In this document: positions 6,965 through 60,247 of the stretch, one piece after another
How positions within the stretch are numbered: position 1 is the first letter of the stretch
Layout: each line of letters opens with the position of its first letter
Origin: Candidatus Aceula meridiana
GTDB taxonomy: Bacteria; Omnitrophota; Gorgyraeia; Zapsychrales; Aceulaceae
Direction of reading: 5' to 3'
Assembly (NCBI GenBank): GCA_030765185.1
Contig: JAVCDE010000011.1
Coordinates: 1 to 60,247, forward strand
Length of the DNA: 60,247 bases
Made by a program: the position numbers and the translations under genes
Notes under the pieces: generated by a model
Seen by the model: only the letters and a program-made list of their open reading frames with translations
Databases searched by the model: none
Told to the model about the DNA's origin: nothing

Positions 6965-7050
6965 AGAGCTTAAAGTATTTTAAGCTCTTGCTGTCTATGT
7001 CAGGGTGGTATATAATAAAAAAGCTTTTTGGACAAAAACATTTTTGGACA
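6965..7050 (+). promoter_or_regulatory. Sigma70-like promoter with upstream palindrome and downstream direct repeats
   Basis: Inverted repeat AGAGCTTAAA-gtat-TTTAAGCTCT (6965-6988); TTGCTG(6988-6993)-17 nt-TATAAT(7011-7016); TTTTTGGACA twice (7025-7034, 7041-7050). Confidence 0.55.
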
Positions 7051-7201
7051 TTCAGTGAGCACTTAAGGTGCAAATCCTTAGCACTGTAATTTAGAAGGGC
7101 GAAAGGACTACTCCTTTTGCCCCACGAATGCGGGAGCGGCGAGACTAAATTCAACCTAACCTTTTGTGTCCACTACGTTCTGCAAAAATTGGATTTCATT
7201 T

Positions 7202-8893: not shown

Positions 8894-9048
8894 CGCGGCA
8901 AGGATTATTTTCTACCTTGGAAAATGTTCGCTGTTAGCCTGGAAGCTCCATAAGTCCTTCAAGTTAAAACAAAAGCAGAAAAACATTTCTTTTTATTAAA
9001 TGACAGGCCGTTAAAAATTTTTGTAATTTCGTAGATTTTCACTTAAAG

Positions 9049-9061
9049 ATATGTTATATTT
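9049..9061 (+). promoter_or_regulatory. Extended -10 element (TGnTATATT) upstream of the pilin array
   Basis: ATATGTTATATTT, identical to 21441-21453 in the giant-gene promoter; -35 is weak. Confidence 0.45.
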
Positions 9062-9264
9062 ATATTACGTTCTAAACAGAGTTTAGTGAGAAAATAATTT
9101 TTGCTTTTTTGCTTTGCTGCTAAACCTTTTTTTCTCAAAATCCTTTAGCCACGGGAGAAGAAATGGGATCTTATCTATTGAACCTGAAACTTGCATTAAA
9201 AAATTTTTGTTATTCTAAAAACATAAAACAAAAATGTTTAACAAAAAAAGTGTATTTAAATGCA

Positions 9265-9399
9265 AGCCGCTTTCCCTCGGTCCCACATTTATGGAGCCTC
9301 GCCTTTGACGAGGCATGGTGGTGGGGCTTGACCCCGCAAGTCGCAACAAGGCGCGACGCTGCGGCCCTTCGGGTGGATTTTGCATCAGCAAAACCCAGG
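9265..9399. other. GC-rich multi-hairpin element in front of or within the first pilin gene
   Basis: Stems GCCTCG/CGAGGC, CCCAC/GTGGG, CCGCA..GTCGC/GCGAC..TGCGG, CCC-TTCG-GG tetraloop, TTTTGC-atca-GCAAAA, in otherwise AT-rich DNA. Confidence 0.55.
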
Positions 9400-9543
9400 T
9401 TGAAGAATTACAAAGGACAAAATTTAATTGAGTACGCTATTGTCATAGCGTTAGTTTCAGCTGCTATGGTCGCCATGAGTACGTATATCTTTCGCTCGGT
9501 TCAGGCGGTCCAAAAGCAGATCGACGGAGAACTACGGAATTAA
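9400..9543 (+). CDS. Flp-like pilin (start uncertain)
   Basis: KG|QNLIEYAIVIALVSAAMVAM prepilin motif. In-frame TTG at 9400; the 9163 extension reads through the hairpin element and is not protein-like. Confidence 0.7.
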   Translation: MKNYKGQNLIEYAIVIALVSAAMVAMSTYIFRSVQAVQKQIDGELRN

Positions 9544-9587
9544 CCATAGGTAAAAACCGTATTTATTTTAACGGTAAGGAGGATTTA

Positions 9588-9986
9588 ATGAAGGGGTTAA
9601 GAAAGAATAAAAAAAATAAAGGACAAAATGTCGCCGAATACGCCATTTTAATTGCTTTGGTTGTCGGTGCTATTTTAGCTATGCAGACATTTGCCAAGCG
9701 CGGTTTGCAGGCAAGAGTTCGTGACGTTACACAATTTATGGTGGACGAAACATCGTCAGCCGACCTTCCACCAGAAGTTCGATGGGGCAACACAGCGCAG
9801 TATGAACCATACTATTCTGAGAGCGCATATGAGACAACAAGAGAGACTAACGAACAAAAGGAACTAGTTGGAGAGACTAACTTTTTAATCGGTTCAAACG
9901 GAGTTTCTTCTCGCGCTGTCGGCGGTTCTCAGAGAACAACTTATAATGTTGATGCAGGGGCTATTAGTAACGGCATGGGTTTTTAA
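9588..9986 (+). CDS. Tad pilin/pseudopilin, family A copy 1
   Basis: Basic leader + G|QNVAEYAILIALVV; QYEPYYSES; ends GMGF; RBS AGGAGG. Confidence 0.9.
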   Translation: MKGLRKNKKNKGQNVAEYAILIALVVGAILAMQTFAKRGLQARVRDVTQFMVDETSSADLPPEVRWGNTAQYEPYYSESAYETTRETNEQKELVGETNFLIGSNGVSSRAVGGSQRTTYNVDAGAISNGMGF

Positions 9987-10034
9987 CAAAAGATTTTACT
10001 GTTGGCATGGCAGGATAAGAAGGATGACATTAAA

Positions 10035-10487
10035 ATGAAACAGATACAAAAAGAAGATTTTAGAAAGAAACAGCAAAAGCGAAAAGGACAGAATGTCGCT
10101 GAATATGCAATTCTGATTTCTTTGGTTATTGGTTCTGTTTTAGCCATGCAGACGTTTGTGAAAAGAGGCTTGCAGGCAAGAACACGTGATACAACACAGT
10201 GGATGGTCGAGGAAACAGACATGCTTGGAGACACCGGGCAATATGAGCCGTATTTTTTTGAAAGTTCGTATGAAGTCGAAAAAGGAGTTGACGAGGTAAA
10301 AACTTTAACAGGCGACACCAACTTTGAAATTGATTCATACGGAAGGACTCATAGACAAGCAGGCGGCTATCAGAGGTCTACATATGAAGTGTCGCATGAT
10401 ATCGGAGACGGGATGAAGTTTGGCAGCGGCGGAGGCAGTTCTGTAGTTAATTGGACAGCAATAAACGAAGAAGAAGAAGAAGAATAG
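10035..10487 (+). CDS. Tad pilin/pseudopilin, family A copy 2
   Basis: G|QNVAEYAILISLVI; QYEPYFFES; GMKF followed by a GSGGGS...EEEEEE tail; ATG 10035 preferred over TTG 10002. Confidence 0.85.
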   Translation: MKQIQKEDFRKKQQKRKGQNVAEYAILISLVIGSVLAMQTFVKRGLQARTRDTTQWMVEETDMLGDTGQYEPYFFESSYEVEKGVDEVKTLTGDTNFEIDSYGRTHRQAGGYQRSTYEVSHDIGDGMKFGSGGGSSVVNWTAINEEEEEE

Positions 10488-10551
10488 TTAAGTAGAAAAA
10501 TAGAAAAATAAGTTGTTTTGTATTTATCATCATTAATAAAAGGAGGAATCA

Positions 10552-10746
10552 ATGTTAAAGAGAAACCGAAAGAAAAAAGGCCAAAGCACCTTAGAGTATA
10601 TTATTTTAGTAGCTGCTCTTGTTTCTGGCCTTGTTGTTTTTCTTGCTAGCGATTCAAGTCCATTCAAGAAAGCTGTAAATCAAACCTATACCTCAGTGCT
10701 GGATGGAATGGAAAATAAAGCAACCGACATGGTAGATAGCTGGTAA
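10552..10746 (+). CDS. Flp-type pilin, candidate major pilin (64 aa)
   Basis: KKG|QSTLEYIILVAALV; Flp size; strong RBS AAAGGAGG. Confidence 0.9.
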   Translation: MLKRNRKKKGQSTLEYIILVAALVSGLVVFLASDSSPFKKAVNQTYTSVLDGMENKATDMVDSW

Positions 10747-10802
10747 TAAACACAAAAGCCTTTAGTTGTGACTAAAATAAGAATCTTAAGGAGGCAAAAA
10801 AA

Positions 10803-11168
10803 ATGATAAAACGTAATAAAAAAAAGAAAGGGCAGAATGTCGCTGAATATGCAATTTTGATTGCCCTTGTTGTCGGCGCAATTATTGCCATGCAAAAATT
10901 TGCCCAAAGAGGCCTGCAAGGAAGAGTTCGTGACGCAACGGAGTGGATGGTGGCTCAAGGAAATGATCAGATAGGACATAGTACGGGACAGTACGAGCCG
11001 TATTATTCTGAAAGCTCGTATGATGTTTATCGTGATTCTTCTGACACAAAGACATTATGCGGAGAAGTTAATTTTAAAGTTGATGCAGACACTGATGTTA
11101 CGCGAAATGGTTACCAGAGGACAATTTATGACGACACTCAAAATGTTGATGGAGGTATGAATTTTTAA
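10803..11168 (+). CDS. Tad pilin/pseudopilin, family A copy 3
   Basis: G|QNVAEYAILIALVV; QYEPYYSES; ends GMNF; RBS AAGGAGG. Confidence 0.9.
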   Translation: MIKRNKKKKGQNVAEYAILIALVVGAIIAMQKFAQRGLQGRVRDATEWMVAQGNDQIGHSTGQYEPYYSESSYDVYRDSSDTKTLCGEVNFKVDADTDVTRNGYQRTIYDDTQNVDGGMNF

Positions 11169-11242
11169 AGATGCAGAAATCCAAGGGAGTTAGTTAACAA
11201 TAATGAAGTTAATTTCCCGTTAAAGAAAAAAAAGGGGGAAAA

Positions 11243-11572
11243 ATGCTTAAGAAAATTAGAAAAAGAAAGAAAACAAAAGGCCAAAGCACTCTCGAATATG
11301 CTGTCTTAGTTGTTGTTGTCTTAGGAGCTTTAATGGCTGTGCAGCAGTATCTCTCGCGCGGTATCCAAGGTCGGGCTAAACAAGCCACTGACGATATTAG
11401 CGATACGCAGTTTGTTCCTGACCAGACAGTTTATACAAAGACAGTAGTAACAGCATCAAACACAAAAGAAATGGCCCAAGGAGGCGAAACAAATTCTGAA
11501 CTGCAGGGAGATGCGGATGAAACAACAACAACGACGATTGATATGTATTTCGACAACACGTTGACGCCATAA
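11243..11572 (+). CDS. Tad pilin/pseudopilin, family B copy 1
   Basis: G|QSTLEYAVLVVVVLGALMAVQQYLSRGIQGR. Confidence 0.9.
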   Translation: MLKKIRKRKKTKGQSTLEYAVLVVVVLGALMAVQQYLSRGIQGRAKQATDDISDTQFVPDQTVYTKTVVTASNTKEMAQGGETNSELQGDADETTTTTIDMYFDNTLTP

Positions 11573-11846
11573 AAGAAGTAGAAAAATAGAATAAAGAAGT
11601 GGTTGTTATCTTTAAGATAACAAGAAAGCATGCAAAAAATAATAAATTTTACGTGCTAAAATCAAGGAGGCACAATGCTTAAGAAAATTAGAAAAAGAAA
11701 GAAAACAAAAGGCCAAAGCACTCTAGAATATGCTGTCTTAATTGTTGTTGTCTTAGGAGCTTTAATGGCTGTGCAGCAGTATATCGCGCGCGGTATCCAA
11801 GGTAGGGCTAAACAAGCCACTGACGATATTAGCGATACACAGTTTG
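11243..11846 (+). repeat. 172-nt direct repeat (11243-11414 / 11675-11846)
   Basis: 6 mismatches in 172 nt by manual alignment; sequences diverge abruptly afterwards. Confidence 0.95.
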
Positions 11847-11983
11847 ACCCTAGTATTACGCGGCACATTAAGACGACCAATACCTCCAGCACGACAAATG
11901 AAATCTCTTTAGATGGAGAGACATGGTCAAACATGTTGGCGCCTGAAGTAACAAATACAAAAATAAATATGTACTTTGAATAG
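11675..11983 (+). CDS. Tad pilin/pseudopilin, family B copy 2
   Basis: G|QSTLEYAVLIVVVLGALMAVQQYIARGIQGR; RBS AAGGAGG. Confidence 0.9.
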   Translation: MLKKIRKRKKTKGQSTLEYAVLIVVVLGALMAVQQYIARGIQGRAKQATDDISDTQFDPSITRHIKTTNTSSTTNEISLDGETWSNMLAPEVTNTKINMYFE

Positions 11984-12026
11984 TTAGCAGGCGTGGAAAT
12001 TACAGAAGCTTTGGTAGTTATGATTT

Positions 12027-12077
12027 AAGCGTAGGGGACTTTTCATCAAGAACAGGGGTCGTTCCCTGCGCTTTTTT
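12027..12077 (+). terminator. Putative intrinsic terminator inside the pilin array
   Basis: AAGCGTAGGGGA ... TTCCCTGCGCTT stem (two G-U pairs, long loop) running into a T6 tract. Confidence 0.55.
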
Positions 12078-12152
12078 GCGGGCAGCATTAATGAGAGTAA
12101 TCGTAGAACTATCGCGAAAAATGGTAAAAAATTAGGAAAGGCGGCATAGTAA

Positions 12153-12581
12153 GTGCTATTTTTTAAAAAAAATATAAAAGCTCAGGTTATTTCTGAGTTT
12201 TCTATGGTTTTAGGGATTGCTATATTAGCGGTTGTGTCAATGATGGTTTTTGTTCAAAGAGGCCTACAAGGACGCATTCGTGACGCCAGAGAGTATGTAT
12301 CTGTGACGTTAGATAGCGAAGCAGACGCAGCCAGACTACAGCGCACAGGAGGCGCGGTTCCTGCTGGGAGCTTTCCTGATGTTCTTTATGGATATGAGCC
12401 ATATTATCAAAAAAAAGGAGCTGTTGTTGAGAGAGATGCGAATCAAATGACAGATTTTTCAGGAACGCAAGGAACGCATAAAAAAAGTATTAATTCAAGA
12501 ACGAGCATGCAAAGCGTATCAGAAGAAGCGCCGGCAGAAAATGATTTCTGGTGGGGCAATGCTGTTATCCCTGGGGAGTAG
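12153..12581 (+). CDS. Tad pseudopilin
   Basis: GTG start; KA|QVISEFSMVLGIAILAVVSMMVFVQRGLQGRIRD; YEPYY. Confidence 0.85.
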   Translation: MLFFKKNIKAQVISEFSMVLGIAILAVVSMMVFVQRGLQGRIRDAREYVSVTLDSEADAARLQRTGGAVPAGSFPDVLYGYEPYYQKKGAVVERDANQMTDFSGTQGTHKKSINSRTSMQSVSEEAPAENDFWWGNAVIPGE

Positions 12582-12604: not shown

Positions 12605-12937
12605 ATGAAACAAATAAAGAAAAAAGCGCAGTCTTTAACTGAATATACGATTGTTGCCGGAATTATTGCTGTTGTTTTGGTTGCCATGGGAACTCCTTTT
12701 CGAAGAACGATTCAGCGCGTTGTCAAAGATGTTTGCGACGTCATTGGCTTGCAGGCTGATGCCGAGCAGGCTTCCGAAGACATTACTCAAGGGCAGCTGA
12801 TCAATAGTGCTTTTGATTCTACCGCGACAATGACACAGTTAAAAGATGGCTCTGCAGGCGTTCAGACAGCACAAAAATTGGGACGGACGTCTGCGAACAG
12901 CATTTCTTATTCAAGCGGAGGGGTCGTCGATGATTAA
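12605..12937 (+). CDS. Tad pseudopilin
   Basis: MKQIKKKA|QSLTEYTIVAGIIAVVL; ATG 12605 preferred over GTG 12551. Confidence 0.85.
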   Translation: MKQIKKKAQSLTEYTIVAGIIAVVLVAMGTPFRRTIQRVVKDVCDVIGLQADAEQASEDITQGQLINSAFDSTATMTQLKDGSAGVQTAQKLGRTSANSISYSSGGVVDD

Positions 12938-13262
12938 GCAAATTTCAAAAAAACAAACGGGTTTTTTAAGAGGGCAAACGCTTTTAGAATATGCCTTTTT
13001 AGCTGTAGTTGTTATGGTGGCCTTGATGGTTGTCCAACGTTATGTACAAAGAGGCATGCAGGGAAAATGGATGGATAGCTTGAGCAGCCTCGATAGCCAA
13101 TATGACCCTCAGGCAGATATTCAATCTAATCATTACACAGAAGCTGAGTCTAGAACAGTGACGAGCGTTGAGGATGGCGGAGGTGGAGGAGTCTACACCC
13201 AGCGTACAGATACAAGCAATATGAATGAAATAGTAAACGAAATCGTAACCGTAACATACTAA
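12930..13262 (+). CDS. Tad pseudopilin
   Basis: RG|QTLLEYAFLAVVVMVALMVVQRYVQRGMQG; ATG 12930 with GGAGGG upstream, overlapping the previous stop. Confidence 0.85.
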   Translation: MIKQISKKQTGFLRGQTLLEYAFLAVVVMVALMVVQRYVQRGMQGKWMDSLSSLDSQYDPQADIQSNHYTEAESRTVTSVEDGGGGGVYTQRTDTSNMNEIVNEIVTVTY

Positions 13263-13266
13263 AAAA

Positions 13267-13689
13267 ATGAATAAGAATAGGCATAAAAAAAAAGCATTCT
13301 CAACTCTGGAATATACAGCATGTATTGTTTTTATAATTGCATCTTTGATGATTATGAGAAAACCCATCGCCCGTATTTTTATGGGTCGATGGAAAACCTT
13401 AGGCGATAGTTTTATGCATGGACAGCAGCTTGATTATGACCCGAACGTGACTAGAGAATGCGGCCAGTATGTGCCTATCGTAGATCCTGAGGAATTGCCG
13501 CTTGTTTGGGGAGATCCGGTTTGGTATAACTACAGGTGTTATGAGTGCTGTATGGATAGAATTGGGCCGACTACGTGCCCAGCGGGTCTTGCCACAGCGG
13601 CAGACCTTTTGGGTTGCCGGGCTGAGGCTGATCCTCTGTTGCGACGAGCATGTTGCGCTGATGCTTGCAAAGACGAGGATTGTAATTAA
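13267..13689 (+). CDS. Tad pseudopilin with Cys-rich C-terminus
   Basis: KKKA|FSTLEYTACIVFIIASL; CYECC...CP...CR...CCADAC...C. Confidence 0.85.
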   Translation: MNKNRHKKKAFSTLEYTACIVFIIASLMIMRKPIARIFMGRWKTLGDSFMHGQQLDYDPNVTRECGQYVPIVDPEELPLVWGDPVWYNYRCYECCMDRIGPTTCPAGLATAADLLGCRAEADPLLRRACCADACKDEDCN

Positions 13690-27500: not shown

Positions 27501-30500
27501 GAGATTAATTGGATTACAAATATAAAAACGGGGTCTGACATCAATCTTGCCCAGGGTGAGATTGGGTTAGGGTTGACAGATATTTATTTTCAGGGTGAAA
27601 ATCCTGATGACCCCGAAGACTACTCTTTTGGCAAAACAAATTATCAGCCTACTTTTAGTAACGTTGTCTGGCTTAACAAAACGCTTTTTGAAACAGATAA
27701 AAAAGGAAAAATTAATCCTTATACCGGCATTCATTTCAGCAGTAATTTTTGGATTGGTGATTTTGATCATGCCTCTGGCGCTATTACGTTTGGCGAAAAT
27801 GGCCAGATTGTTGATGAGGAGAGCACATATGCCAAGGTATCTATGGGGAGGAACAAGAAATGGAGAATTAGTGCCCAAGCAGATGCCGCGGGCTTATCTG
27901 CCTATGGAGAGATTGAAAGATATAAGATTGCTGAATTGGTCAATCCAAATGCGGAAGATCCCGCGAAGCGATATGAAATTCATCTTCCTTCTCTTGAGAT
28001 GGAAGGGGTGACCGGCCGCCAAGAGGTTCTAGCTGAAGGAAAGCAAGTCACAACAGAAGAATTTGACGTTGAAAAGGCAGTTGTGACAAAAGATAAAGGC
28101 GCTCAACAAATGCTCGGCTTTAGGGTAACAACTCGCGATGGAGGCTCTATTTATGTTCCAGCGACTAAAGAAGGCGGAACCGGGGATGATTCAGGAGATT
28201 TTGATCCTGTTGAGAATTCGGTTGTTTTAAATCACGAAGGAATTGTAGATGGAAAAGGAACCAAAAATGGCCATCGGTGGAAATTAAACAAGGCTTCCGG
28301 AAATACCTATTTTGTTTTTACGCAGGGATTTAAATTTGACGAAGAAGGCAACCTTCAGAATGAAGGGGCTGTTGATGTAAGTTCTATTGCTTTAAAACAA
28401 GGAAAATGGCACAACGTTGACGCAACAACCATTAGCAAAAAAAAGATTAAAGACAGCAAAGGTAATCTGGTTGATCGAACGGTTGTGCATGTTGACAAAA
28501 CCCCTCATCTTATTGCTTACAGCTGGGGGGAAGAAGGTGGCCTTATAAATGAATCTTATATTGGACGAGACAGCAAGAAAGGAAACAAAAATTTTGTTTC
28601 TATCCCCGAAGGTAATGCGTTTATGCTTAAAGGCCTATTTTCGTCAACAGAACAATTAAGTGATTTTGTTTTGGCTTCAGAGGACTTTGAGGTTAAAGAT
28701 GAAGATGGCAATGTTGTTGGTGTTGAACTTTTAAAAACCCCGGGTGCGTTACGATATGGTAATAGTGAAACATGGACATATATGGAACAGAATAACGCGG
28801 GAGAATTCGTTATCCCTACGCAACAACTCGTCCTTTTAGGAGATAATATCCAGTTTAAGACTAAAGAATACGAGCGTACCATAGCGTATATGAGCTTTAA
28901 AGATTTTCTTGGAAACGAGAGCGAGGTTTTCGAAAATGGAAGCCTTGTTTCCGACATTGTTGTCTATGGGCAGTCTTTTAAAAAGGGAGTATCAAGGGAA
29001 GATGTTAAAAAAGCCCTTCCTTCTTTTGACGACAAAGGCCGTCTTACTGAAGATTTTGCGGCCTATGGCCATAATTATAAAAAAGGAGCTTTAAAGCAAG
29101 ACGTAGAAAAAGGCTTCCCTGGAAAAATAGTTTCAAGGCAGGATATAGAGCTACAAGAAAGCGAAGAAGGAGATGTCCTTGCAGCTGATGCAGACCAGGA
29201 ACAAGACAAAGTCGCTATTTTAAGTGATGAGATTAAGAAATCTTCGAAAAAAGCAAAATATCAGGATACTTTTGAAGATGGACAAATTGTTTATGGTGTT
29301 GAAGGGATGTCTTTTATCCCGTCGGGAATCCAGCATACTGTTTCTTCAGCGGGTGAAAAGAAAGAGCTAACCTCTGCTTCTAAGGTTCATGTTCGTCAGG
29401 ATTTTTACACCGATGGCATTGTCCACACTTCTGAGGCCGCAGACAAAGACAACACGATTAATTCTGTAGAAGGGTTTGCAGCAACTGTTCCGGCTACTGT
29501 TACTTTAGGGGCGGATGGCGTAACTGTTTCCTCACATGCTGAGGCGGTTGGTATGGGCTATGAGTTTGATAGCGTTATGGGTCAAGAGGACCGAATCGGT
29601 GATTTTGCTGAGACCGTAGTTCTTGCCCTACGTGATGGCCAACCTGCGGAGCAAAGCGAAGAGGATGTTGACAAGGCCTTGGAAGACGATGCTTCTGTTC
29701 CTCATCTTCAAGATAGCCCCTTTTTCTCTAACGAACTTTATTCGGCTTCCGATAGAACAGCTTCTTATTCCGGAGGTTTTAATAGAAATGCTCCTAAGCC
29801 TGACATTGTTTTTCCTGTTGCTTCAACTGGGTCCCCGCTATACAAAACTTGGGAAGGAAATATAGACATTAGTCCGGATACCGCGATTCTTTCTTCTTTG
29901 TCTAAAAATGAGGACGGAATTGTTACAAAAACATTTATTGGTGCCATGGGAGATCCTGACACAGCCAATCCTTCTATTGCGTACAGAGCTGATGGACAGG
30001 TTGAAGGGGCTATCAGCCTTCAGGAGCAAACAACAACAAATGATGACGGGTGGTTTACTGTTGAGGAGAATGGCGTTGAAGTTAAACAAAGAGTCATTCC
30101 GATGGTAATGACTCAAAAGAAAGAAGAAGGAAAATGGGAGTGGAAACGGGATACAAGCCGAAGATGGCATTTTAACGGAGGATATGTTAAAGAAAATTAT
30201 AAAGGTGCTAAGAAGCTCTCTGAAACTTCTCTTCAGCCGCGATGGAAGTCCATAAGCGCAAGTGAGTTAGGTCAATTTTTTGATTCAGAAGGTAATCTCA
30301 CTAACGATATCAGCATTTATGGCGTTGATTATAAAAAAGGAATGTCAATAGAAGAATTTGATGATATTTCTGCGAAAGAAATTGCTACTTTAAAAAAGAC
30401 AGGTTTTGATTTTAGCGCGAATCCTAACACGTTTCTTGTGTCAGTCATGACAAAAATTAATGATCTTCCTATATCTGCTGATATTACTTTTCAGGACGAT

Positions 30501-45500: not shown

Positions 45501-48500
45501 TCTATTATTTCGTCTTCGGCTACCGTGGGTACTCCGCAAGAGCTAACTGATTTCTATTTTAGCAATAATTATCCTGATGTTTATTGGAGCACAGATGGTG
45601 ATGTTTATAGTGTTAATGCAGATCTTACTTTAAACGAGAAAATTGATATCGAAATTATTAAAAATGGTGTTGTCATCGTTCCTTCAGACAGTCCAATTGA
45701 TCCGCTTTCGGATATGAGTCGTTTAGGATGGTTTGATCCTAACGCCTTTAGCATGCCGACAACAGTTGCTGCACCGCAATATGCAGCCACAGTTTTCAGC
45801 GGCGATACGCCTCCAGGAAGCACATTCCTTATGTCTAGCAGCGTTGTTAGTGACATTAATATGCTTAAAAAGGCCTTGCCAGCGGATCAATTAGCGCTTG
45901 TTGTTTCAAGCTCTATTATTTATGTTGCGCCTGAAGATTGGAAAAAGACAGCAGCTTCTCTAGCGCCAACGCATTCTGTTTATGCTTATGATGGTAAAAA
46001 CATTCATCCGGTTAGTGAAAACGGCAGCATTACCACAAGCACAATTAAATTTGCTGATATTTCCGGTCAATTTAGTATTTTTGTTGCAGAAGAAGACTTA
46101 CTAGAGGCATTTAACGCTAAGCACAGATTCATGGTTGTTGAAGGCACATACTTCTTTGATAAGACGCTCTACACTCTTAAAGCAACTGTTTCAACCACAG
46201 AAACAGAGATAGAAGAAGATTTTGCTCCTGTAGATGTTCCTCAATTTGAGGTTCCGGACATGACTCCGCCGGCTGAATTTACTCCGGCTGTGCCAACAGC
46301 TCCGATTGCGCCAACATTTATGATTACACCTCTTCTTGGTAAAAAAGAAGTACAATCAGACCAAAAGATGGCTCAGGCGCCTCCGACTACCTTTGTATAT
46401 AGTCTTGCAAAAGCAGAGCCAAACAGCGCAGGTCAAAATCGGCCTTATACCATACCCATACATACCGAACACGCTGTGATGCCATTAGTGCCAGCATTGC
46501 CTGATGTCCCTGTCTCTGAGAATGATCCTAGTACCGGAGGCAATGGCAGCAATAATCCTGTTCGAAAGGCACCTACGCATCAGATGATTGCCTTTGCAAG
46601 AGCTAATGTAAACAAAACTGACATAGTTCAGCCAGTAGGCCTTGCCGCAAGCGCTGCGAGAGAGAATGGCGCAGGTTGGAAGATCGAGATTGCTAAAGCG
46701 ACATCGACAAAGGGCCTTACTACTGGCTTAGATCCGAATCCGCTTTCAGCTGCCGCTCGTTTCCGCAACGAGTCAGGCGGGAGAATAACAGGAAGCGCGG
46801 AACAAGAAGCCATGGACTCTGTGTCGGTATTTGCTTTGACCGATGTAGACGCAAAAGAAGAAAAAGAAGCAAATGTTGTTAAATTGTTCTCTAAGAACGC
46901 TTTAGACGTAGTTAGTCTAAACAACGGAGACGAAAAAGCCAAAGGTGTGCGTTCTGGAGTAGTTGTTGATCTTCAGAGAAATGCCTTCAGGTTAGCCAGC
47001 CTGGTCCTTGCAAAGGGACGAATGAGCTTGAACCGTTCTTTGAACATAGTGAATGCTGCCCCTAGCACTATTAGGGAAAGCGTGATTGCTAAAGGCGCTG
47101 AAAATGCCCGTATCTTAGGCTCTGCCTATTATACTAGGGTAAATGATGTCCTTAATGTGATCTATGCTGATGTCAAGGACGTTGCTCTTTGGATGAATGG
47201 ATCGTTACAGGAAGTGCTTACTGTAATCGCAGGCCTGTTTGTTAGCCCTGTGTATGCTGCAGAAATAAGCGTTTCCGGTGGTGCGCGAGGTGTGTCCTCA
47301 AGCGATGCTGCTAAAACAGTCGAAGAAGATGTAGAGACTGTAGCTGAGCTTAAGGCCAAACCAGCTCTAAGCGTAGATGCGCCTCTAAGAGGCCGCATGA
47401 TCACCTTCCCTATAGTAGGGGAAGATGCCGGAAAAGCTGCAGATGCAAACTCAGTGTCTAACATGCGAAATAGTCTATCACAAGAAGGATTAAAAAGACT
47501 ATTCACACAGCCAGCTTTTGCAGAAATTGGCGTTTCCGGTGGTGCACAAGGTGTGTCTTACGAAGACCGAGCCCCAATCACTGCCCCAGCAGGAAGTATC
47601 TCTGCCAGAGCAGCTAGTTCTATAGGCTCTATAATAAAGAAGGCACTCAGTGCAGTTTACAGCGCCATCGTTCAAAGAAACAACAGAGGTTTCGAGCTTC
47701 AGGGCAAAGAAGTCAGCATCGCGAGAAACTTGATCGCCGGAATCCTTATTCCGACGCTCTTCATACTTCAGGTTCTCCAAATACTGCCCAACGGGAATGC
47801 TGTGTCTCCCGAAACCTTAAACTTAGTACAAAATATTCAGATTTCAGGGACTGACCTTAGCGTATTCAATCATCCTATCGTTAGAATTATAATTCTTTCT
47901 TGGGGCTTTGGGTTCTATTTCTTAGCAAGAAACATGCCGTTTGTGTCATTGCACTTATTTGTAAAATCAGTTCTTTGGATGGACTTTGGTGGTGCTGGAA
48001 CATTCTGGGGCAATTATGGCTATAATGCAACTATCGACATGCTTTTCTATATGACCTATGTTATGGCCGGGGCAGAAGTCCTTAGGCTAGGCTGGAGACT
48101 TCTTAATGGTAAATTCTTAGAGCATTCTAGCTTTAAAGCAATGCAAGATAACTTTGGCACTATTCCTGCTCAAATCCTTTCTGCTCTTGCAGAGGTCACT
48201 TATAGGGCTCAACCAAAATTTACGACTCGTCAAGTTATCGCAGGCGTTGTTACAACCTTTGTCATTCTAACCCTAACGGAGATTTTCCCAGTTGAAGCTT
48301 ACTATATTTACGAAACTTATATTGTTAAAGGACAGCAGACACGATATAGCGGACTTACTCCTGATCGCTGGGATGTTGTTGCATATGCCTTTGGCGGTCT
48401 TTGGCTTACTCCGGTTGCCTTAAAGCTTAGAAACTTAGCTGAGAAGACCAGCAAAGCGATTAGTAAAGCTATTAAAGAGGAATGGGAAGAAGATACGAAA

Positions 48501-51500
48501 GATTTTGATGATGAAGATGAAGGGAACAAATGGGAGCAAGGCTCTAGCGCTGTTGAAACCAAAAAGGCTTCCAAGGTTTCTAGCCCTGATAGAAAAATGG
48601 ATTCCAATATTCCAGCGTTACCTTCGCTACCTTTAAATTCAGCGAATTCTCCAATTATTTATAGCGTAAGCCCACTTCTCTTAATGCCTGTTATGTTAGG
48701 TGCTGGCGTAAGCGCATCTGCTATCGCAGAGGGTGCACTTGTTGCCGCAGGTTTCTTTGGAATTATTTGGTTGCTTAGAAAATGGTTTGCTAAGACAATT
48801 TCTGCACCAAATCGGATCAGTGGAAAACTAAAAGATTTCATGCTGAAGGCGTTGTCAACTGCATCCCTTAACCGTGGCGGTGGGATTGAAGATTTCATGA
48901 CAACGCCTTCTTCTATTATTAACACCATTAAGCTGCTGGCCGGGATTCTTGTACCTTTCCGTGGCAGGAATACAAGTAGAAACGTTCTGCCAGCAGCTTC
49001 TTCTTCAGCTAGCCCTGTATCTAAGAAGACTGAAAAAGCAAGAAGCGTAGTCAAAGCCGTAGTTATCTTTGCAATTATAGCGCTATCAATTGTTGGAGTA
49101 AGCATCAACTTCGGGGCTATAGCCACGTTTATCTCGCTGGTTCCGTTTAAGACATTATTAGTAGCATTGTCTAAAGAGGCGACGATGTTGTTCTTAAGCG
49201 GCACGCTTATCGTGGCTGCTTTAACAGCGAAATTTATCGCAAAGATTTTGAACATAAAAAATAGTAAATTAAAATCAGCGCTATCTTCTTTCTGGGTGCC
49301 GGCATTGCAGTTTACCGTTCTTATCGGATCCACTTATTTATGGGTAATTGCTCAGTCTCAATTTGCTGCATCAATAGCTATTGCCGCTACTTTGTTACCG
49401 TTTATTAAGTTAGCAATGTTTTCAGCGTTGTTCTTTATCGTGGTTTGGGCATTAAATGGAATGGTGGACAACATTGGCAGGATCATAAATGGCGAAGAAG
49501 TTAAGTTGATGAACGGAATTAAATCTCGACTTGGGAGCATGCCTAAACTTAGCAGAGCGGTCTGGCTATCTATAAGAGACTTGAGAAAAGCAAAGAGAGC
49601 AGAGCTAAAGACATCTATGAAGGCACATTTTGTTAAACTCTTTAACGATGTTAAGAAAGGCAACTGGAAAGCAATAGTTAAGGTAGTTGGTGTCACAGCC
49701 TTAGTGTTGACTGTTATTGTTGCTGATCCGGCCTTAAAGATATCGGCCTTTGCCTGGTTTGTTGGGGCTTTATTAGCTGTCTTTGGAAGCTATCTTGTTA
49801 ATGTGTTCTGGAATTTCTTTATGGATAGAATTGACGCTAATGTTAAGACTTTGGATCAGATCGTTGAATACGCCAAAAGAGCTAACGGAGAAGAATATGA
49901 TTCTGAAGCATTGCCTGACGCAACAATCGGAATAATCGAGAAGAGAGCCAAAGAATACGAGGAAAGGATTAAAAGAGCCAGCAAGGTAGGAAACGCCATA
50001 TATAGATTTAACGCATGGATGGAGAGAAGAGTTCAGAATAATCCTACCTTCGCCGGATATCTCGGATTGTATTTCTCTAGGATTTTAATCGCTGCTATTG
50101 GTGTGTGGGTCGCTGGACCTGTGGGAGTAGGTTTAGGATTTGGCGTAGAAGATTCTGTGCTGGAGCCAGTATTAGAGACCATTGGTTTTTCAGCAGAGTT
50201 TATCAAAGGCACCATAGCTAACTTGGTAAAATTAGGATTACAGCATACACAAGGACAACTCGTCAGAGTCTTGCTTATCGTTTTAGGTTATATGGTCGTT
50301 GGTTTAGCTAATAGATTTAGAGCAGCCCAGCAAGGAAAATTTGGCATTGGCACCAAGTCAACACATGTTCTTAGGGCTTTAGTAGAAAACAAAGAGAACT
50401 TGAAGATAGTGGATCAGATAAAGAGTCTATATCAATTAGGCTTGGTAAATGATGTTCTTGGAATGGGTACAAAAAGATTAATAGAAGAAGAATTAGGCAT
50501 GAACAAAGAAGATATGCATTCTATAGGAAAGCGTATTAAAGCTCAAGTTGTTTACAACGTTGTTCCGATGTTGATAGCTCTTGGAGGCATAGCATTATTT
50601 GTTTTACCTCTATTAACTAAAATGTTATGGGCAATCAATCCGATTTTAGGGGCAGCAGTTTTGGCCTTGCCGATAGTAGCTGGTTTGGTTAGTTTAATGT
50701 TTAAGGCAAGGCAAGATTTTGCAGCTAAACATCCTTATTCAAACGTTATCGCGCAACAAGCAGCACAATCTTGGAAGAGCTTCGGCGGAATGTATATTAT
50801 CGGTACAGAGATTAGCGCAATCACTCACGGCGCAGAGTATTTAACTCATATTCCCGGAGTAGGATTTGTATTTGAACCAGTAGACAATATGGCGCAGGCA
50901 TTTGAAGGCGAAGGCGGGTTAATCAGCATTGGTGACCAGCTAATCGGAGCCTTCGAAGGAGCATATGGATTTGTTAACGGAGAGACAATAGAGGAAGTTC
51001 AAGGATTAAGCAGTCAGTGGGTATATTCTAAAGTTCTAGGAGCGGAAGGGGATCTTAAAGATATCCAGATGGCAGAACAACATAGAATCTCTGTAGAACA
51101 AGCTGCAAAAATGAGAGAGCTACAAAATTTTAAGGCCAAGAAAGCTGTTCAGGAAGGTTACAATTCTGAGAATGGCTGGTGGAAGAACATCATCAAATTC
51201 GGTAATGTTGTTCAGGCTAAGGGAGTTGACTTACCTGTTGGTGACATAGACGAGCAGATTAATCTCTTGCAGAAAGAATTGGATATATTAGAAGCAGAGC
51301 ATAAACTTGAAGAATCATTAAAAGAAAAAGAGAGAGTAGAAACACTTTCAGAATTAAGCGAAACAGAAAAGACCAACATGCTTTCTGTTTTAGGCTATGG
51401 CCTGCCGGAAGATGAAAATGCTGAAAGAAGCATGAAAGCCTTCAAGGCAGCACGAAAAGACACTGCTGATTCTGAAACAGACGAAGACAAGGCCTTAGTC

Positions 51501-54500
51501 GATGCGTATCTATCTTTAGTTAACAATGATATCGAGAGAACTAACAATAGTAGAGAAATGACGCAGATAGCCTTAAATCAGCTAGCAGACAGCAAAGAAT
51601 ATGTAACCTTAATCACAACCGCTCCGGTTCAGCTAGAGAAGGAGCAGGAGGTTGTGAATAGATTAAACGGGTACACAGAAAGATTAGAGCAGCTAGCCGC
51701 TGAAGACAATGCTTTAAGAAATAAGAGTGATTTAGAAATTCTTCGCAACCAAGACTTAAGATATAAGTTAGAACTTAGCGAAGGAATTGCGAACGAAAGT
51801 AGGAGAGACATCGTCGAGAAACAAAAAGAAGTTGTTGCCAAGCAGGTTGAGGTGTTAGAGGAAAAAGAAAAGTCAGAAGATGACCAGAATCGAGAAAAAA
51901 TTGCATTGCTTTACAAAGAAATAAGAGACCTAAACGGAGAACTCGCGGACCTAAAAAGTGAGTATTTTAAAGAAAAATTAAATGAATCTGAAGTCGTCAG
52001 AGAAGATTTAATTGATATTTTAAATAGCATAGGAGTCCTTAGACAACCTCAAGATGTCAACGCGGAAGCTAGCGATAGCGACATCGAACAGGCTCTTAAC
52101 ATTTTAGAAAGATCGTTAAATATTCCTGCAAACGATAATAACGGTATCGAAATAGGAGACAAAACAAAACAAGCAATAGTGAACATCTTTGATGTGAAAC
52201 TAAGAATATCCAAAGAAAAGGATATCCAGAAGAGAACCGCAGACAAGATTAACTTAAAAAATACTTATTATGAAATCAACAGAGTAATCGCTCAGGACAA
52301 CCATGACGCAAAGAGAGACTTTACCTTGCAGAAGATTTGGGATGCAATAAAAGACAAACGCTATTTGCCTTCAGAAAAATTACTTCAGCAAATAGAAGAG
52401 GCTGAATACTTTGTTGATTATTTAACTTATTCTTTAGGCGTGCTTAATACTGTCGCCATAGCTGATGGTTATGAATACACAGATGATGTGCGCGTAGCTT
52501 TAGATAAACTAAATATTTATTTTGATAGCAATGAGAATGCCGATAAAGCTAAGGGATACTTGGAAGCCCTTGAATCCAAGACAGCTTCACTTAAAGAGAC
52601 AGAAGCTAATTTGAGGGAACTATTAAATGAAGCAAAGGAGTCTTTAGAGAAATCAATGGCTCAAGCTTGGGGCGAAGAAGAACTTGTAGAGATTGACGAG
52701 CAAGATGCAAATGATGAGGTAAGAAGTGCGTTGGCTGAAGAAGTCAATGGCATGAAAGAAGCTTTCGGTGAGAATATAGCCAAAATAAGAGACATAAGAA
52801 GTAGCCGCTATGAGAATATTTCTAATCAGAACGATGAATTGGCAGAGCTAGATAAACTTTTTGGAAGCCAAGAAGCCTATGAGCAGAGAATGGCAGACAT
52901 CTACGCTAAATTAACAATGATAGATTTATATGTTGATCTTCAGCTAGGAGACACAGGTAGCAATGTCGAGAAATTATACAGACTGTTAACCCAGGAGTTT
53001 GATGCCACTGAAAAAATAAAAGGCATCGCCGGTATAGATATCACAGGAATTTTTACCAATCAGATGAGTGAAGTTATCGAAGGCTTACAGCAAGAGCTAG
53101 GAGTAGAAGTTAGTGGAAAATGGAATGATGAGACCGCCGCCGCTGCAGAAGACTTTATCAGCGAAAAGGTATTGGCTACTTATCATATCGGCCTGCTTAA
53201 GAATGCTGGCTATTATAACGAGGCAGATAATTATGAATCCAATCAAGATGTATTTGCCGATTTAGAAAATATTTCTAAAATAATTGACGGATTCCAAGCC
53301 GATGCCAAGTTCCCGGTAGATAAAATAACCGGTGAGTGGAATTTAGAAACAACTGAATATTTCTCTAGGCTCGAGCAAGGTTATATGCAAGCTAAATGGT
53401 TGAACCAGCGCTCTTCTGATTTAATCGCAGAATATAGAACAGAGCTAAATAGCTTGAAGCCGGAATTCCCAATTGAAGGAAAAGACGCTAAAGATGATGT
53501 GGCATCCAGGTTCGGATTTGTTAAAGGTCGCTTTGACAGCAAGTCACATGTTAATACCGGCATTACAATCGATACCCAAGACGGCACCACAATACACGCC
53601 ATAGCAGATGGCGAGGTCGTTTTTGTAGACAACAAAAAAGGTATTATCAAAATAGACCACGGCAACAATATAGAGAGCATTTATAGAAACTTAGGCAAAG
53701 TCGAGGGCGACCTTAAAGTAGGCGACATGGTTATCAAGAGAAACAAGCTAGGCGAGAGTAAAGATTCATACATGCATCTTAAGGTGCTTATCAATGGCGC
53801 TGCGGTTAATCCTTTAAATGGAGTACTGTACGAGAACTTGGCCGATGAAGACAGAGCCGCACACGAATCAATCAAGCAAATCAGACAAGATCGAGAAGAC
53901 ACCAGACGCAGACAAGATTTAATAGATTTTATGAATTCCCGTACAGAAAATGCTGATGTTGTAACACTTGAAAAAGCATTGGAGAGTATAAACAGCAAAG
54001 AATTTGAGGCAGAATATCGCAGGAGCAATGAAGATGTTGACAACGCCTTGATTACTTTTGAAAGAATGTTGCAGGAGTTAGATCAACAGGGCTTTAAAAA
54101 ATTCGTTAAAATGCTTAAAGATCATCAATTTAATATCGGCGGCTCTATACAGCTTAATGAAGGTTCTCTAGAAAAAATGGGTTGGTTAGGGTTTGCATCT
54201 AGATTAGACGATATTTTTGTAAAACCATTCCGAAAAGACAGCAAATATGAAAGCATCTCGCTAGAGGCTACACTCAGCTATTTCAACGCCTTGATTGCTT
54301 TAGAAGATGCCAGATTAGATGCGGAGAGAGAAATTAAAGAAGCTTATATAGGCCTGTTATCAGCTGAGATGAGATTAAGAATGTTTGAGGGTGGAGAATT
54401 GACACAGGATTTAGTAGATGTTTGGAAGAAAGACGGATACGCGTTTGATGCTCATCAGAAACGATACCTGAATATACCTGTTGAGAAATTAGCCAACTGG

Positions 54501-57500
54501 GAAGAAGCAAGAGCTGATTGGGAAGAATCGAAAAAGGCTTTCCAGGACATAACCAACATAGAAGTCAATCCGTTTATGCTGGAGACGGTCAGCCTAGTTG
54601 ACCTAAAACAGGAAATTCTAGATACAAAAATTAATAGAAAGAATATCGATGGGCACACAGAAGGCGTAACTGCTTTAGAAAATAATTTAGCTAAGAATTT
54701 CATAGGCAGACTATTGAGCAACGTCAATGTACAGTTTGGATTCAGTCTCGCAGAAGGCAGAAGTGGATTATTTAGTCTAGGGGTAGACCTCAAGGTTCTA
54801 GACAGTGAAAGAAAGCTTAGCGAACAAAAAGATCAAGTAACCTTTAGCGTCATAGGAGAGAGAAAAGAAGACCTGATAGAAAAGACATTAGCCAATGATG
54901 CTCACTACAGCAACTTAGTCGACCAAGCAATGAACTTTAACGAAGACATTGCTCTCGTTAGAGAATATCAAGCGCCGGTTGAGGCATTCATAGAAAAGCT
55001 AGATCCTATCTTGCCAATCAAAGAAGCTTCCATTCTCGAGGCCAAAGAACTTAAAGATTCTATAAAACTTCAGAAGGCTAATTTGCCAAGCCTGCTTTTA
55101 AGCAATCTCACACCTGATCGTCAAGCTATCACAAAAATGCGCGCCGGATTAAATCTAGGTATTAAAAAATCTGCAATAGCGCAAGCAGAGCTAGAAGACG
55201 GATCAGGAGAAATTGTTAAAAACAGGACGGAAATTGATGAGGAAAAAGTTAAGGAATTTAGAGATACATGGCAACAATGGTTCAAGGACATAGACAAGGT
55301 CAATAACAAAAACAAGAAGACACCTACAGAGAAGGCCAATGAAATAAATGATATTTTAGCTGAAGCTAAATTATTTGAGGATTATTTCAAGCTTGAGAAA
55401 ACACAAAACAGAACTCTAGACAGTGAATTCAAAATAAAGCTAGAAGCATTAGAAACATATACTATCCTATCTGACAAGGAAAGAGATGGCTGGTTTAAGC
55501 GCTATATGGCTTCTCTATTAAAGGGAGAGCACGTGAACGCTCCTCCGCAGACAGCCGCAGAAGCTGCAACACTTCCTTTAACCCTCGAGCAAGCCACAGA
55601 TTACTTCAAGACATTCCAAGGATACCAAGACACAGAAGAATTAATAAAAATCGTTCACGACAGATTGCCATACACCGCAGACGTAACCCTACAAACAATC
55701 ATTGACGAAGCTATTAGAGAAGAAAAAGACGCATTCGATTTAAATAATATATTTACTGAGATAAGCAATATGGAGCTTAGGTTAGCCCAAAAGAGAGGCG
55801 TAAGCATCAAAACAGGATACTTTATTGCCATGGCTACCTTAAGGGTTCAGATTCAGTCGCTCTCTAAAGGCGAGATAGCAGGCACAGAATACAAATTAGC
55901 TTATGAAGGCCTTATGAATATTATCGATGCTCAGCTCATCGCTTTCAAGGCTACAGACGCTTACGAAAATTACCTCCACACCTTGTTAGAGTACCAAAAC
56001 TGGACAGGAAAAGGCGGCGATGAGTTTAAAGCAGCGCAGCTTAAGAGAGACCTAGAGATAAGCAAATTGTATCTACCGGCATCAATGCAAGATAGCCAAG
56101 AATTAAAAGATTTAGAGGCGCAGGATATTACATATAAGAAGCTTACTGACCTCATCGAGCAGGATAATAAATTAATCGACTTCAGCGTATTAGGTGATGA
56201 GTTAAATCAAAGAATCATATTTGCCAATATTTGGAAACTTAGAGAAAATAAGAGTGACTGGGTAATACAGGGTGCATCCGAGGTTTATACGGCAGCCGTA
56301 ATGTTTGCTTTACCGTTTGTGACTAAGTTTATCAATTGGGTAGCCGGTCCGGATAAAAAAGAGATTGCTAACCAGATAACAATTCTTTCCGGAGAATTAA
56401 ACAGGATAGAAACAAATAATGCAAAAGGAATTCAGTCAGAGCAACAACTCCTCGAGTCTTATGAAAGTCAAACGATGAGCATAGATTACTTTGAGAGAGA
56501 AATGATCGAGGCAGAAGATAATAGTAGAAAAGAATCTGAGGTAGAGTCGAGCCTAAATCAGGCTGCCTATAACTTAGCGACTTTAGAAGCTAAAGCAGCT
56601 TATGGAGATTTTGAGCTTCCTGTCACTCAGACCATGGATGAGGATGAGTTCCAATATATCGATGATCAGACAACCTCTATTGACTCTGAAATTATAAATG
56701 GGGCTTCTATATTAAGCGCGGTAAGGTTTACATATGGGGATGGAGCTACAGGGGAACAAGTAACCGTCTTAACGGATGAGGGCAGCCTTGTTGAGGTCAG
56801 AACGATGCATACTTCTGACGGAATTACCATGCGCTATATTAATTCTGAGAATTTAAGAGATAGGTCAGATAGGATGCAGATAGACGGCAGCGTTAGACCA
56901 GGCCTTGATAGATCTATCGATGCTATCCAGGCGGTAGATAAGATGGAAATACCTTTAGAGCTCTTTGGTCAAGATGAGATAGATGTAGATTACGCCTTGA
57001 AGATGACAAAGGTCGAAAATGAAGCTCAGTATTTTGGCAATATCGGCGTAGCCTACCGTTTGACTTTCAAGAACGGGGACAGATTAGAGTTGCCGGTCTT
57101 CGTGCTTGTCGACCAGGATGAAAAGATTAGTTATTTTGTCGACTTCGACTATTACAGCAAAGATTTCAGCTTAAACACAGGCCTCTATATTCATCCAGAA
57201 GTAAACGATGCTGGCGAAGATATTTATAAGGTAACTGGCCTCGTTGGCGGCCGCAAGATATTTAGGGATCAGGCAGGCGCATATAATGGAGATGTCAGAG
57301 TCTTCTACCAAGATACCAAAGCAGGAGTATATTCTAAGTTTATGTTTGGAGCAGATAATGGCTGGCGTATGAATATAGCTATGGATACGGACTGGAAAGA
57401 GAATCAACATTACAGCAGTCAAGTAGGCGTTGAGAGAAGGGTGAATAATAAATATTTTGTAGGAGTAGGGCTAGATATTGCTTACAGAGAAGAAGGATTC

Positions 57501-60247: not shown

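Follow-up and report, generated by a model that had tools for sequence, protein, structure and literature searches.

The stretch at positions 47720 to 58025 of a 60,247-nucleotide (nt) contig of Candidatus Aceula meridiana (phylum Omnitrophota; the whole contig was analysed and is called the window here) is the mid-part, at about amino acids (aa) 8710–12145, of a giant open reading frame (ORF) that starts at nt 21591. In our reading, to which we give slightly less than an even chance, this part of a giant mosaic protein is a conserved envelope module that acts as an envelope tether, with each end of the tether anchored in the inner membrane. The module contains a polytopic membrane block, an M23 (LytM) domain with a dead active site and a segment with a pronounced beta-amphipathic signal, in an order that is conserved among its relatives. 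In the proposed model, the block of about 15–20 transmembrane (TM) helices would fix the chain in the inner membrane, from which an extracytoplasmic excursion of ~5,800 residues would return to a second polytopic block, the flagged region forming the first half of this excursion. A variable acidic spacer precedes a peptidoglycan (PG)-binding motif and the LytM domain, which here would at most bind the wall and not cut it; the first ~360 aa of the following helical region may derive from a TolC-family protein, and the beta-meander after it most likely enters the outer membrane as a barrel. Inner membrane, wall and outer membrane would in this way be joined by one covalent tether, and the acidic repeats and glycosidase-like parts further along the chain would be kept at the envelope by it. 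An earlier reading of the DNA alone, referred to below as the sequence-only reading, had seen an order of domains running from the inner membrane to the outside and had proposed that the protein encodes its own trans-envelope channel or anchor. The order holds in the window, and an envelope anchor is a fair reading because the order matches the envelope and is kept in relatives, whereas the channel is not borne out, no TolC fold having been found.

The giant ORF occupies positions 21591–60245 of the plus strand, with 12,885 codons, no stop before the window end and an open 3' end; the window is the entire contig (C20) of a 1.91-Mb genome that is 94.6% complete and comprises 33 contigs. Another contig, C12, opens with a frame of 13,934 codons (C12:2–41803), the first 55 residues of which are 75% identical to the last residues of the window. 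Two related proteins, P0002 (7,087 aa) and P0003 (4,162 aa), each of them one protein, are collinear with window aa 9149–12860 and then with C12 aa 1–1283 or 1–792. Because these homologues run collinearly across both parts, the window ORF and the C12 frame are treated as one gene, which, to judge from the alignments, almost certainly encodes at least 26,819 aa and was broken in the assembly by its diverged ~83-aa repeats. In a contig of run X2, the loose end at nt 60200 is identical to C12:128–157, which is no proof of the C20–C12 join because a repeat core of ~80 nt is identical in both contigs.

Among 1,835,955,588 representative proteins, three relatives were found, which are 44, 38 and 37% identical over 1,200 aa and which NCBI names M23 or DD-metalloendopeptidase family protein, partial; all three loci, from species-representative genomes, are titled Candidatus Omnitrophota, and wherever they cover the module its domain order is the same. 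As far as these sequences tell, only four genomes have this module of about 3,700 aa in common. When 300 other genomes of the phylum were scanned with the beta segment, no match was found, and a scan of metagenome contigs for relatives gave none. A search for longer homologues also returned none, but the same search missed two of the known relatives (P0001 and P0003) and is therefore uninformative.

The polytopic alpha-helical membrane block (47712–50699, plus strand; aa 8708–9703) was delimited by hydropathy, using a Kyte–Doolittle scan with a 19-aa window and non-overlapping segments. As the sequence-only reading had it, the block is of the inner-membrane type: 19 hydrophobic 19-mers lie at aa 8714–9703 (nt 47730–50699), 14 of them scoring at least 1.6 and five scoring 1.21–1.55, and with a further segment at aa 8543–8561 the total for aa 8543–9703 is 20, 15 of which score at least 1.6. 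From aa 9704 to the window end, the same scan found no hydrophobic segment. P0002 has a corresponding membrane block, and P0003 begins at its last hairpin. Two recurrent elements were seen in and near the block. A TM hairpin module at aa 9002–9074 (window 48594–48812), including a flanking Pro-rich lead-in and an RKWFA motif after the hairpin, recurs with 46% identity at C12 aa 10028–10103 (about nt 30083–30310). The motif A-E-I-[SG]-V-S-G-G-A-[RQ]-G-V-S is duplicated at aa 8556–8570 and 8643–8657 (window 47256–47300 and 47517–47561), each copy coming after a hydrophobic, signal-peptide-like stretch that ends in Ala; there is no third copy in the 26.8k-aa protein.

The block is followed by an acidic spacer (50700–53030, plus strand; aa 9704–10480), recognized by its charge and by Pro/Gly-free stretches of 50–72 aa and presumed to be helical, the length of which varies from about 700 aa here and about 800 aa in P0002 to about 25 aa in P0003. 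The range aa 9701–11700, where the sequence-only reading had seen long coiled coils, is acidic and has Pro/Gly-free stretches of 50–89 aa; by a crude heptad score, only 3.2% of its positions exceed the 99th percentile of shuffles, which gives no support to long canonical coiled coils. Next comes a PG_binding_1-like motif (PF01471; 53037–53144, plus strand), a borderline match (E 1.1e-4, 22.7 bits against a cut-off of 23) that takes in profile positions 21–56 of 57. A second look-alike at about aa 10567–10590 was seen by eye only, so that of the PG-binding motifs reported earlier one stands, as borderline.

The Peptidase_M23/LytM domain (PF01551; 53550–53813, plus strand) is a clear match (E 1.6e-12, 47.9 bits against a cut-off of 28.7), in agreement with the sequence-only reading, and its active site is degenerate. 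The catalytic motifs, which in the LytM literature are HxxxD, a conserved His and HxH, lack four of their five residues in the window, namely the His and Asp of HxxxD, the middle His and the first His of HxH: the domain reads NTGITI for HxGxD, YRNL for YAHL and YMH for HLH. P0001 is likewise substituted (NTGINI, YIH). Catalysis has probably been lost in this genome, with the fold kept. EnvC and NlpD are degenerate LytM factors, having the M23 fold without the catalytic residues, and in EnvC a coiled-coil or helical region adjoins the M23 domain. The present domain resembles these Escherichia coli proteins in that zinc-binding and catalytic histidines and the aspartate are replaced, and differs from them in being embedded in a giant membrane protein and in having intact sites (H..D, YAHL, HLH) in two of its three relatives, P0002 and P0003. 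With two genomes carrying a dead domain and two an intact one, these residues suggest a switch between wall cutting and wall holding.

Downstream of the LytM domain, the chain is predicted to be helical. A candidate OEP/TolC-like unit (53940–55019, plus strand; aa 10784–11143), weakly recognized and consisting of two hairpin-plus-long-helix halves, is followed by a region of long alpha-hairpins (55020–56600, plus strand; aa 11144–11670) that was delimited on the structural model and matches no family. The case for the first unit comes from global profile alignment with hhalign, in which columns 1–320 align with OEP positions 33–391 of 485 (score 19.5, P 0.001) and columns 41–360 with positions 66–430 of 485 (score 16.2, P 0.004), both collinearly and over 283–290 columns, with both beta-hairpin-like stretches landing on OEP hairpins. 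As controls, 13 other windows of the 887-aa helical region scored 0.7–11.1, and 40 column shuffles had a mean of 2.9 and a maximum of 9.4. Among the 303 ORFs of 380–560 aa in the genome, a canonical OEP is the best global match to the unit, aligning over 201 columns; the protein ranked second is a TPR protein with 50 columns, and the longest alignment among the other 14 listed has 99. Language-model neighbours of the helical part include TolC/OEP clusters (0.88–0.89), which serve as leads only. An alignment of the unit with itself for an internal repeat gave P 0.15.

We consider it possible, at roughly even odds, that aa 10784–11143 is a much-diverged single OEP-like unit of ~360 aa. It would be like TolC and other OEP proteins (PF02321) in its two consecutive hairpin-plus-long-helix halves within about 360 aa, collinear with OEP positions 33–430 of 485, and unlike them in having no Pfam-level match and no TolC fold in its model and in not being a free secreted protein. 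By no standard test does it qualify as a member of the TolC family. Outer-membrane-factor chains (SilC, CmeC, MtrE and TolC) appear among the structural matches at E 0.6–2.7 only, and OprM, the one such chain that was re-aligned, gave Z 7.6 at a root-mean-square deviation (rmsd) of 25 Å; VIA-align matched the helical model to generic helix hairpins only, at model residues 811–887 and Z ≤ 8.6. A hidden Markov model built from the genome's own three OEPs did not match the segments, a six-frame OEP scan of the whole genome had matches in contigs C32 and C1 only and none in C20, tblastn found no paralogue of the TolC-like or the beta segment in the genome, and phmmer with both segments against PDB sequences found nothing at E ≤ 10. 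Of the TolC-like segments claimed for nt 53940–56600, the part up to nt 55019 is thus weakly upheld and the rest, though helical, is not, and the suggested single-chain pseudo-oligomeric TolC is reduced to at most one OEP-like unit.

The beta region begins with a small alpha/beta subdomain, taken from a low-confidence model (56691–57065, plus strand; aa 11701–11825), and continues as a beta-meander of about 20 long amphipathic strands (57066–58025, plus strand; aa 11826–12145), defined by the model, the period-2 signal and structural matches. Period-2 amphipathicity in the windows starting at aa 11701–11801 is the highest of 530 windows over the 26.8k-aa protein (0.14–0.195, against a mean of 0.051 and a standard deviation of 0.029), and the predicted strands are strongly dyad-amphipathic, with one hydrophobic and one charged face. 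AlphaFold modelled the region as an all-beta meander in which 26 strands, many of 10–16 residues, fall into two sheets (residues 94–312 and 330–450). Foldseek found 17 matches at E ≤ 1e-3, mostly BamA, TonB-dependent receptors, LptD and VDAC. Aligned with VIA-align against 48,161 representative chains, the model reached Z ≥ 8 with 19 chains, and the best 50 are all membrane beta-barrels by title, at Z 7.1–10.4; over the Foldseek list, Z ≥ 8 was reached with 93 of 996 chains, and the best 50 are again all membrane barrels by title, at Z 8.4–10.0. These figures have weight through the uniform fold class and not through the score, as rmsd values are 4–11 Å and, by the tool's own note, a best Z of 7–8 is common for unmatched models. 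Language-model neighbours are SprA, Porin_4 and YaiO clusters (0.88–0.94; leads only). In all four sequences, the last strand ends in hydrophobic-x-Phe followed by Ser-Gly (L-K-F, L-N-F, F-N-F and L-N-F), and a Gly/Ser/Asn-rich linker, read from the sequence, comes after the conserved Phe (58026–58151, plus strand). This ending, the two-faced strands and the period-2 signal are all independent of the modelled fold. The beta-signal of outer-membrane barrels is C-terminal and ends in an aromatic residue; the motif here would take that position only if the chain were cleaved. We regard an outer-membrane-type barrel at aa 11826–12145 as the likelier assignment. The beta-barrel-like character seen earlier is upheld by the period-2 signal, and barrel closure is not.

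In having, on one chain, a periplasmic part and then a predicted outer-membrane barrel, the protein would resemble two known kinds of protein. PelB, BcsC and PgaA are exopolysaccharide exporters composed of TPRs and a porin, and the beta region has structural matches to PelBC, BcsC and PgaA barrels (Z 7.7–9.8); unlike in these exporters, there is no TPR before the barrel here. Intimin and invasin, the inverse autotransporters, have a LysM domain, then a barrel and then a passenger, and the periplasmic part of intimin binds PG. The likeness to inverse autotransporters is one of order only (a PG-binding part, a barrel and a downstream region), and the strand count looks higher than the 12 of intimin. 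Both groups differ from the present protein in that its chain returns to the inner membrane after the barrel-like region, and no Pfam family, the inverse-autotransporter barrel included, matches nt 56691–58040 at E ≤ 10.

Beyond the linker lies an acidic, Trp/Tyr-rich tail (58152–60245, plus strand), recognized by its composition, with a net charge of −33 to −50 per 385–500 aa. The acidic repeats noted earlier hold as regards the acidic tail, but repeats, diverged and of ~83 aa, are found in the window only at aa ~12746–12885, that is in the last ~140 residues from about nt 59826, and Tandem Repeats Finder found none in that stretch. Contrary to the sequence-only reading, the end of the chain is not at the exterior: the excursion runs from aa 9704 to C12 aa ~2605 and is followed by the second polytopic block and, further on, by cytoplasmic-type enzyme and sigma-factor domains. 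Two features speak for a location outside the cytoplasm: the scarcity of cysteine in the window part, described below, and the recognizable content of the excursion, which is of extracytoplasmic type only and comprises the PG_binding and M23 matches and a weak glycosidase TIM-barrel match (E 5e-4). The last of these lies at about C12 aa 1452–1571, where Glyco_hydro_2_C (E 5e-4) and Cellulase (E 2e-3) are both just under their cut-offs. The genome encodes BamA and three canonical OEP genes, and for this reason we take the bacterium to be diderm.

Several results weigh against this reading, in addition to the caveat on VIA-align scores given above. Both AlphaFold models were built on alignments of four sequences, since only three relatives were found, and both are poor. 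That of the helical region (887 residues; pLDDT, the predicted local distance difference test, 45.0; pTM, the predicted template-modelling score, 0.27) consists of helices only and shows no TolC fold, and the prediction proposed for nt 53940–56600 thus went against the TolC claim. That of the beta region (pLDDT 47.7, pTM 0.43) gave the all-beta meander and barrel-class matches expected for nt 56715–58025, but a closed barrel is not established by it because the Foldseek TM-scores to barrels are 0.10–0.25, with rmsd above 20 Å. No outer-membrane family of Pfam or NCBIfam matches the beta region at E ≤ 10, hhalign comparisons of this region with four OMP_b-brl proteins and BamA did not score above shuffles, and its Phe motif is internal to the chain and not C-terminal. 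As to the OEP-like unit, Pfam OEP (PF02321) does not match the window segment at E ≤ 10 and matches only one of the four homologues (E 2.9, 8.1 bits); of the three OEPs that the genome itself encodes, two take ranks 221 and 299 among the 303 ORFs; and local hhalign against OEPs gave a probability of 0.7–1.5% and a score of 23.9, which is above 40 of 40 shuffles and is not distinctive because the neighbouring helical region scores 23.1. By a hand count under the positive-inside rule, the chain from aa 9704 onward would be cytoplasmic; this count conflicts with the domain logic and is not trusted either way. Finally, a DeepTMHMM survey of 916 long proteins of Omnitrophota contains, in the part of the account available to us, no beta-barrel calls, and a wider set of 947 contains two, which its authors dismissed (Nielsen & Lui 2026, bioRxiv 10.64898/2026.06.07.730766).

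How much of the envelope the chain would span, and whether as one piece, are the points on which other explanations part from the tether. A stronger version, which we hold to be doubtful, has a single polypeptide in both membranes with a PG-binding dead LytM domain between them, forming a covalent three-layer staple: alpha-helical blocks would sit in the inner membrane, and a linked beta-barrel, possibly with a TolC-derived element, in the outer membrane. Unlikely, but a serious contender, is a polyprotein: the giant ORF would be cut, perhaps by its own C39 head or by another protease, into ordinary envelope proteins, such as an inner-membrane protein, an EnvC/NlpD-like dead LytM factor, a self-trimerising TolC-like factor and a porin-like barrel ending at the conserved Phe, and the envelope order would be an operon-like gene order instead of one physical tether. 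The giant protein does have an N-terminal C39 peptidase, and C39 or S8 domains have been suggested, in the part of the source at hand, to cleave giant proteins (West-Roberts et al. 2023, bioRxiv 10.1101/2023.11.21.568195). Cleavage is not known to have been demonstrated for any such protein. The hydrophobic-x-Phe end with its immediate Gly/Ser/Asn-rich linker, present in four of four sequences, resembles the end of a free outer-membrane protein, and in the C12 part, modules that correspond to whole, unrelated proteins follow one another (ROK, CofD, NUDIX, GNAT, RelA_SpoT, CrcB and sigma-70 r2/r4); against this, signal peptides before the OEP-like or beta segments are not evident on reading the sequence. 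The tripeptide SS[SA] occurs 57 times in the giant protein, compared with ~15 by chance on our own estimate, but is absent from aa 9139 to C12 aa ~4018, so that by this motif the whole excursion is one uncut unit, and other candidate junction motifs are rare (RSE.R once, SSP[VILM] once and DGG five times).

Insertion into the outer membrane may also be altogether absent. On this explanation, which strikes us as improbable, the helical and beta parts are soluble periplasmic or surface domains, for example spacers and a beta-sandwich, beta-solenoid or Rhs-like shell, and the barrel-like and TolC-like signals are artefacts of amphipathic periodicity and low-confidence modelling. The low confidence of the models is in its favour, as are the generic hairpins (Z ≤ 8.6) matched by the helical part, the lack of any outer-membrane family recognized by sequence and the presence, among the Foldseek rows, of a beta-propeller (DDB1), a Tc-toxin/Rhs protein (TcdB2-TccC3) and teneurin; YD-like motifs, seen by eye in the homologue consensus downstream of the acidic repeats, point the same way. 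Yet the best 50 rows of each of the two VIA-align lists are all membrane barrels, with no soluble folds, the strands of 10–16 residues carry a hydrophobic face opposite a charged one, the OEP alignment is collinear over a full protomer span, and the language-model neighbours (SprA, Porin_4 and YaiO; TolC/OEP; 0.88–0.94) point, as leads only, in that direction too. Least probable by far is a private continuous channel, made of the inner-membrane part, a single-chain pseudo-trimeric TolC tunnel, the barrel and the acidic repeats at the surface. The match of domain order to the order of envelope layers would fit it, but just one protomer-sized OEP-like unit is detectable, further windows of the 887-aa region scoring 0.7–11.1; the TolC fold was not recovered, more than 14,000 aa of chain still follow, including further inner-membrane blocks and domains of cytoplasmic type, and the genome already has three ordinary OEP genes.

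The wider protein in which the proposed tether would lie belongs to a described class. Pfam matches in its 12,885 window residues number four: Peptidase_C39 (PF03412; N-terminal, aa 235–317, plus strand), a methyltransferase (Methyltransf_11, about aa 6062–6151, plus strand), the borderline PG_binding_1 and Peptidase_M23. The C12 part carries more hydrophobic blocks (aa 2605–4155, 6981–7161, 10048, 12247–12493 and 13241–13512) and ROK, CofD, NUDIX, LMWPc, GNAT, TPR, RelA_SpoT, CrcB and sigma-70 r2/r4 domains; a CrcB fluoride-channel domain, sigma-70 regions 2 and 4 and a TPR tail stand in frame inside the giant ORF (C12:31502–41803). Cysteine is scarce, with five residues in the 12,885 aa of the window part (aa 192, 416, 426, 4697 and 7040), compared with 1.26% genome-wide; the protein is nearly Cys-free over its first ~17,000 aa and returns to roughly genome level after C12 aa ~6000, and P0001 has 0 Cys in 2,475 aa. 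Shortly before the stretch matched by C39, an N-C-G motif contains the Cys at aa 192. Upstream of the giant ORF is a Tad pilus locus, with RcpC/CpaB, a secretin, a CpaF-type ATPase, a TadE/G-like protein and two TadB/C genes. The secretin and ATPase genes lie at window positions 2205–3881 and 3959–6121; the secretin has a C-terminal TonB_C domain, and the ATPase (720 aa) is fused to an N-terminal ParA/TadZ-like domain. Part of nt 53000–60247 is carried by 16 public DNA runs, all labelled salt lake metagenome, four of them with at least half of the sampled words; contigs from these four runs show no base differences and no indels against this range, one of them may be the source sample, and no RNA run is listed among the 16.

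With more than 10,000 aa, an N-terminal C39 domain, many TM helices, mosaic domains, a Tad neighbour and poor conservation, the protein is like the giant ORFs of Omnitrophota, of which C39-headed and 'multi-enzyme' classes are described in the parts of the literature available to us (Seymour et al. 2023, PMC10066038; bioRxiv 10.1101/2023.11.21.568195; bioRxiv 10.64898/2026.06.07.730766). It is a C39-headed giant of this phylum, having at least 10,000 aa, a C39 domain, TM blocks and Omnitrophota relatives. Giant ORFs, C39 heads and Tad neighbours have thus been published already; the envelope module is not described in those parts, in which, supplements aside, an M23/LytM, TolC-like or barrel-like module goes unmentioned, and, judged by their listings, the papers retrieved for Omnitrophota with M23 or with TolC do not deal with giant-protein modules.

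On the envelope arrangement and the intactness of Omnitrophota giant proteins, the module offers two testable handles. One is the conserved Phe-Ser-Gly junction, which would be a natural site to examine for processing. The other is the candidate outer-membrane domain in a chain that also crosses the inner membrane many times, which, if real, would challenge the usual separation, within one chain, of the Sec/YidC and BAM insertion routes. If the three-layer staple is true, it could place the surface machinery of the giant protein by the Tad pilus of a bacterium that is ultra-small and either predatory or episymbiotic.

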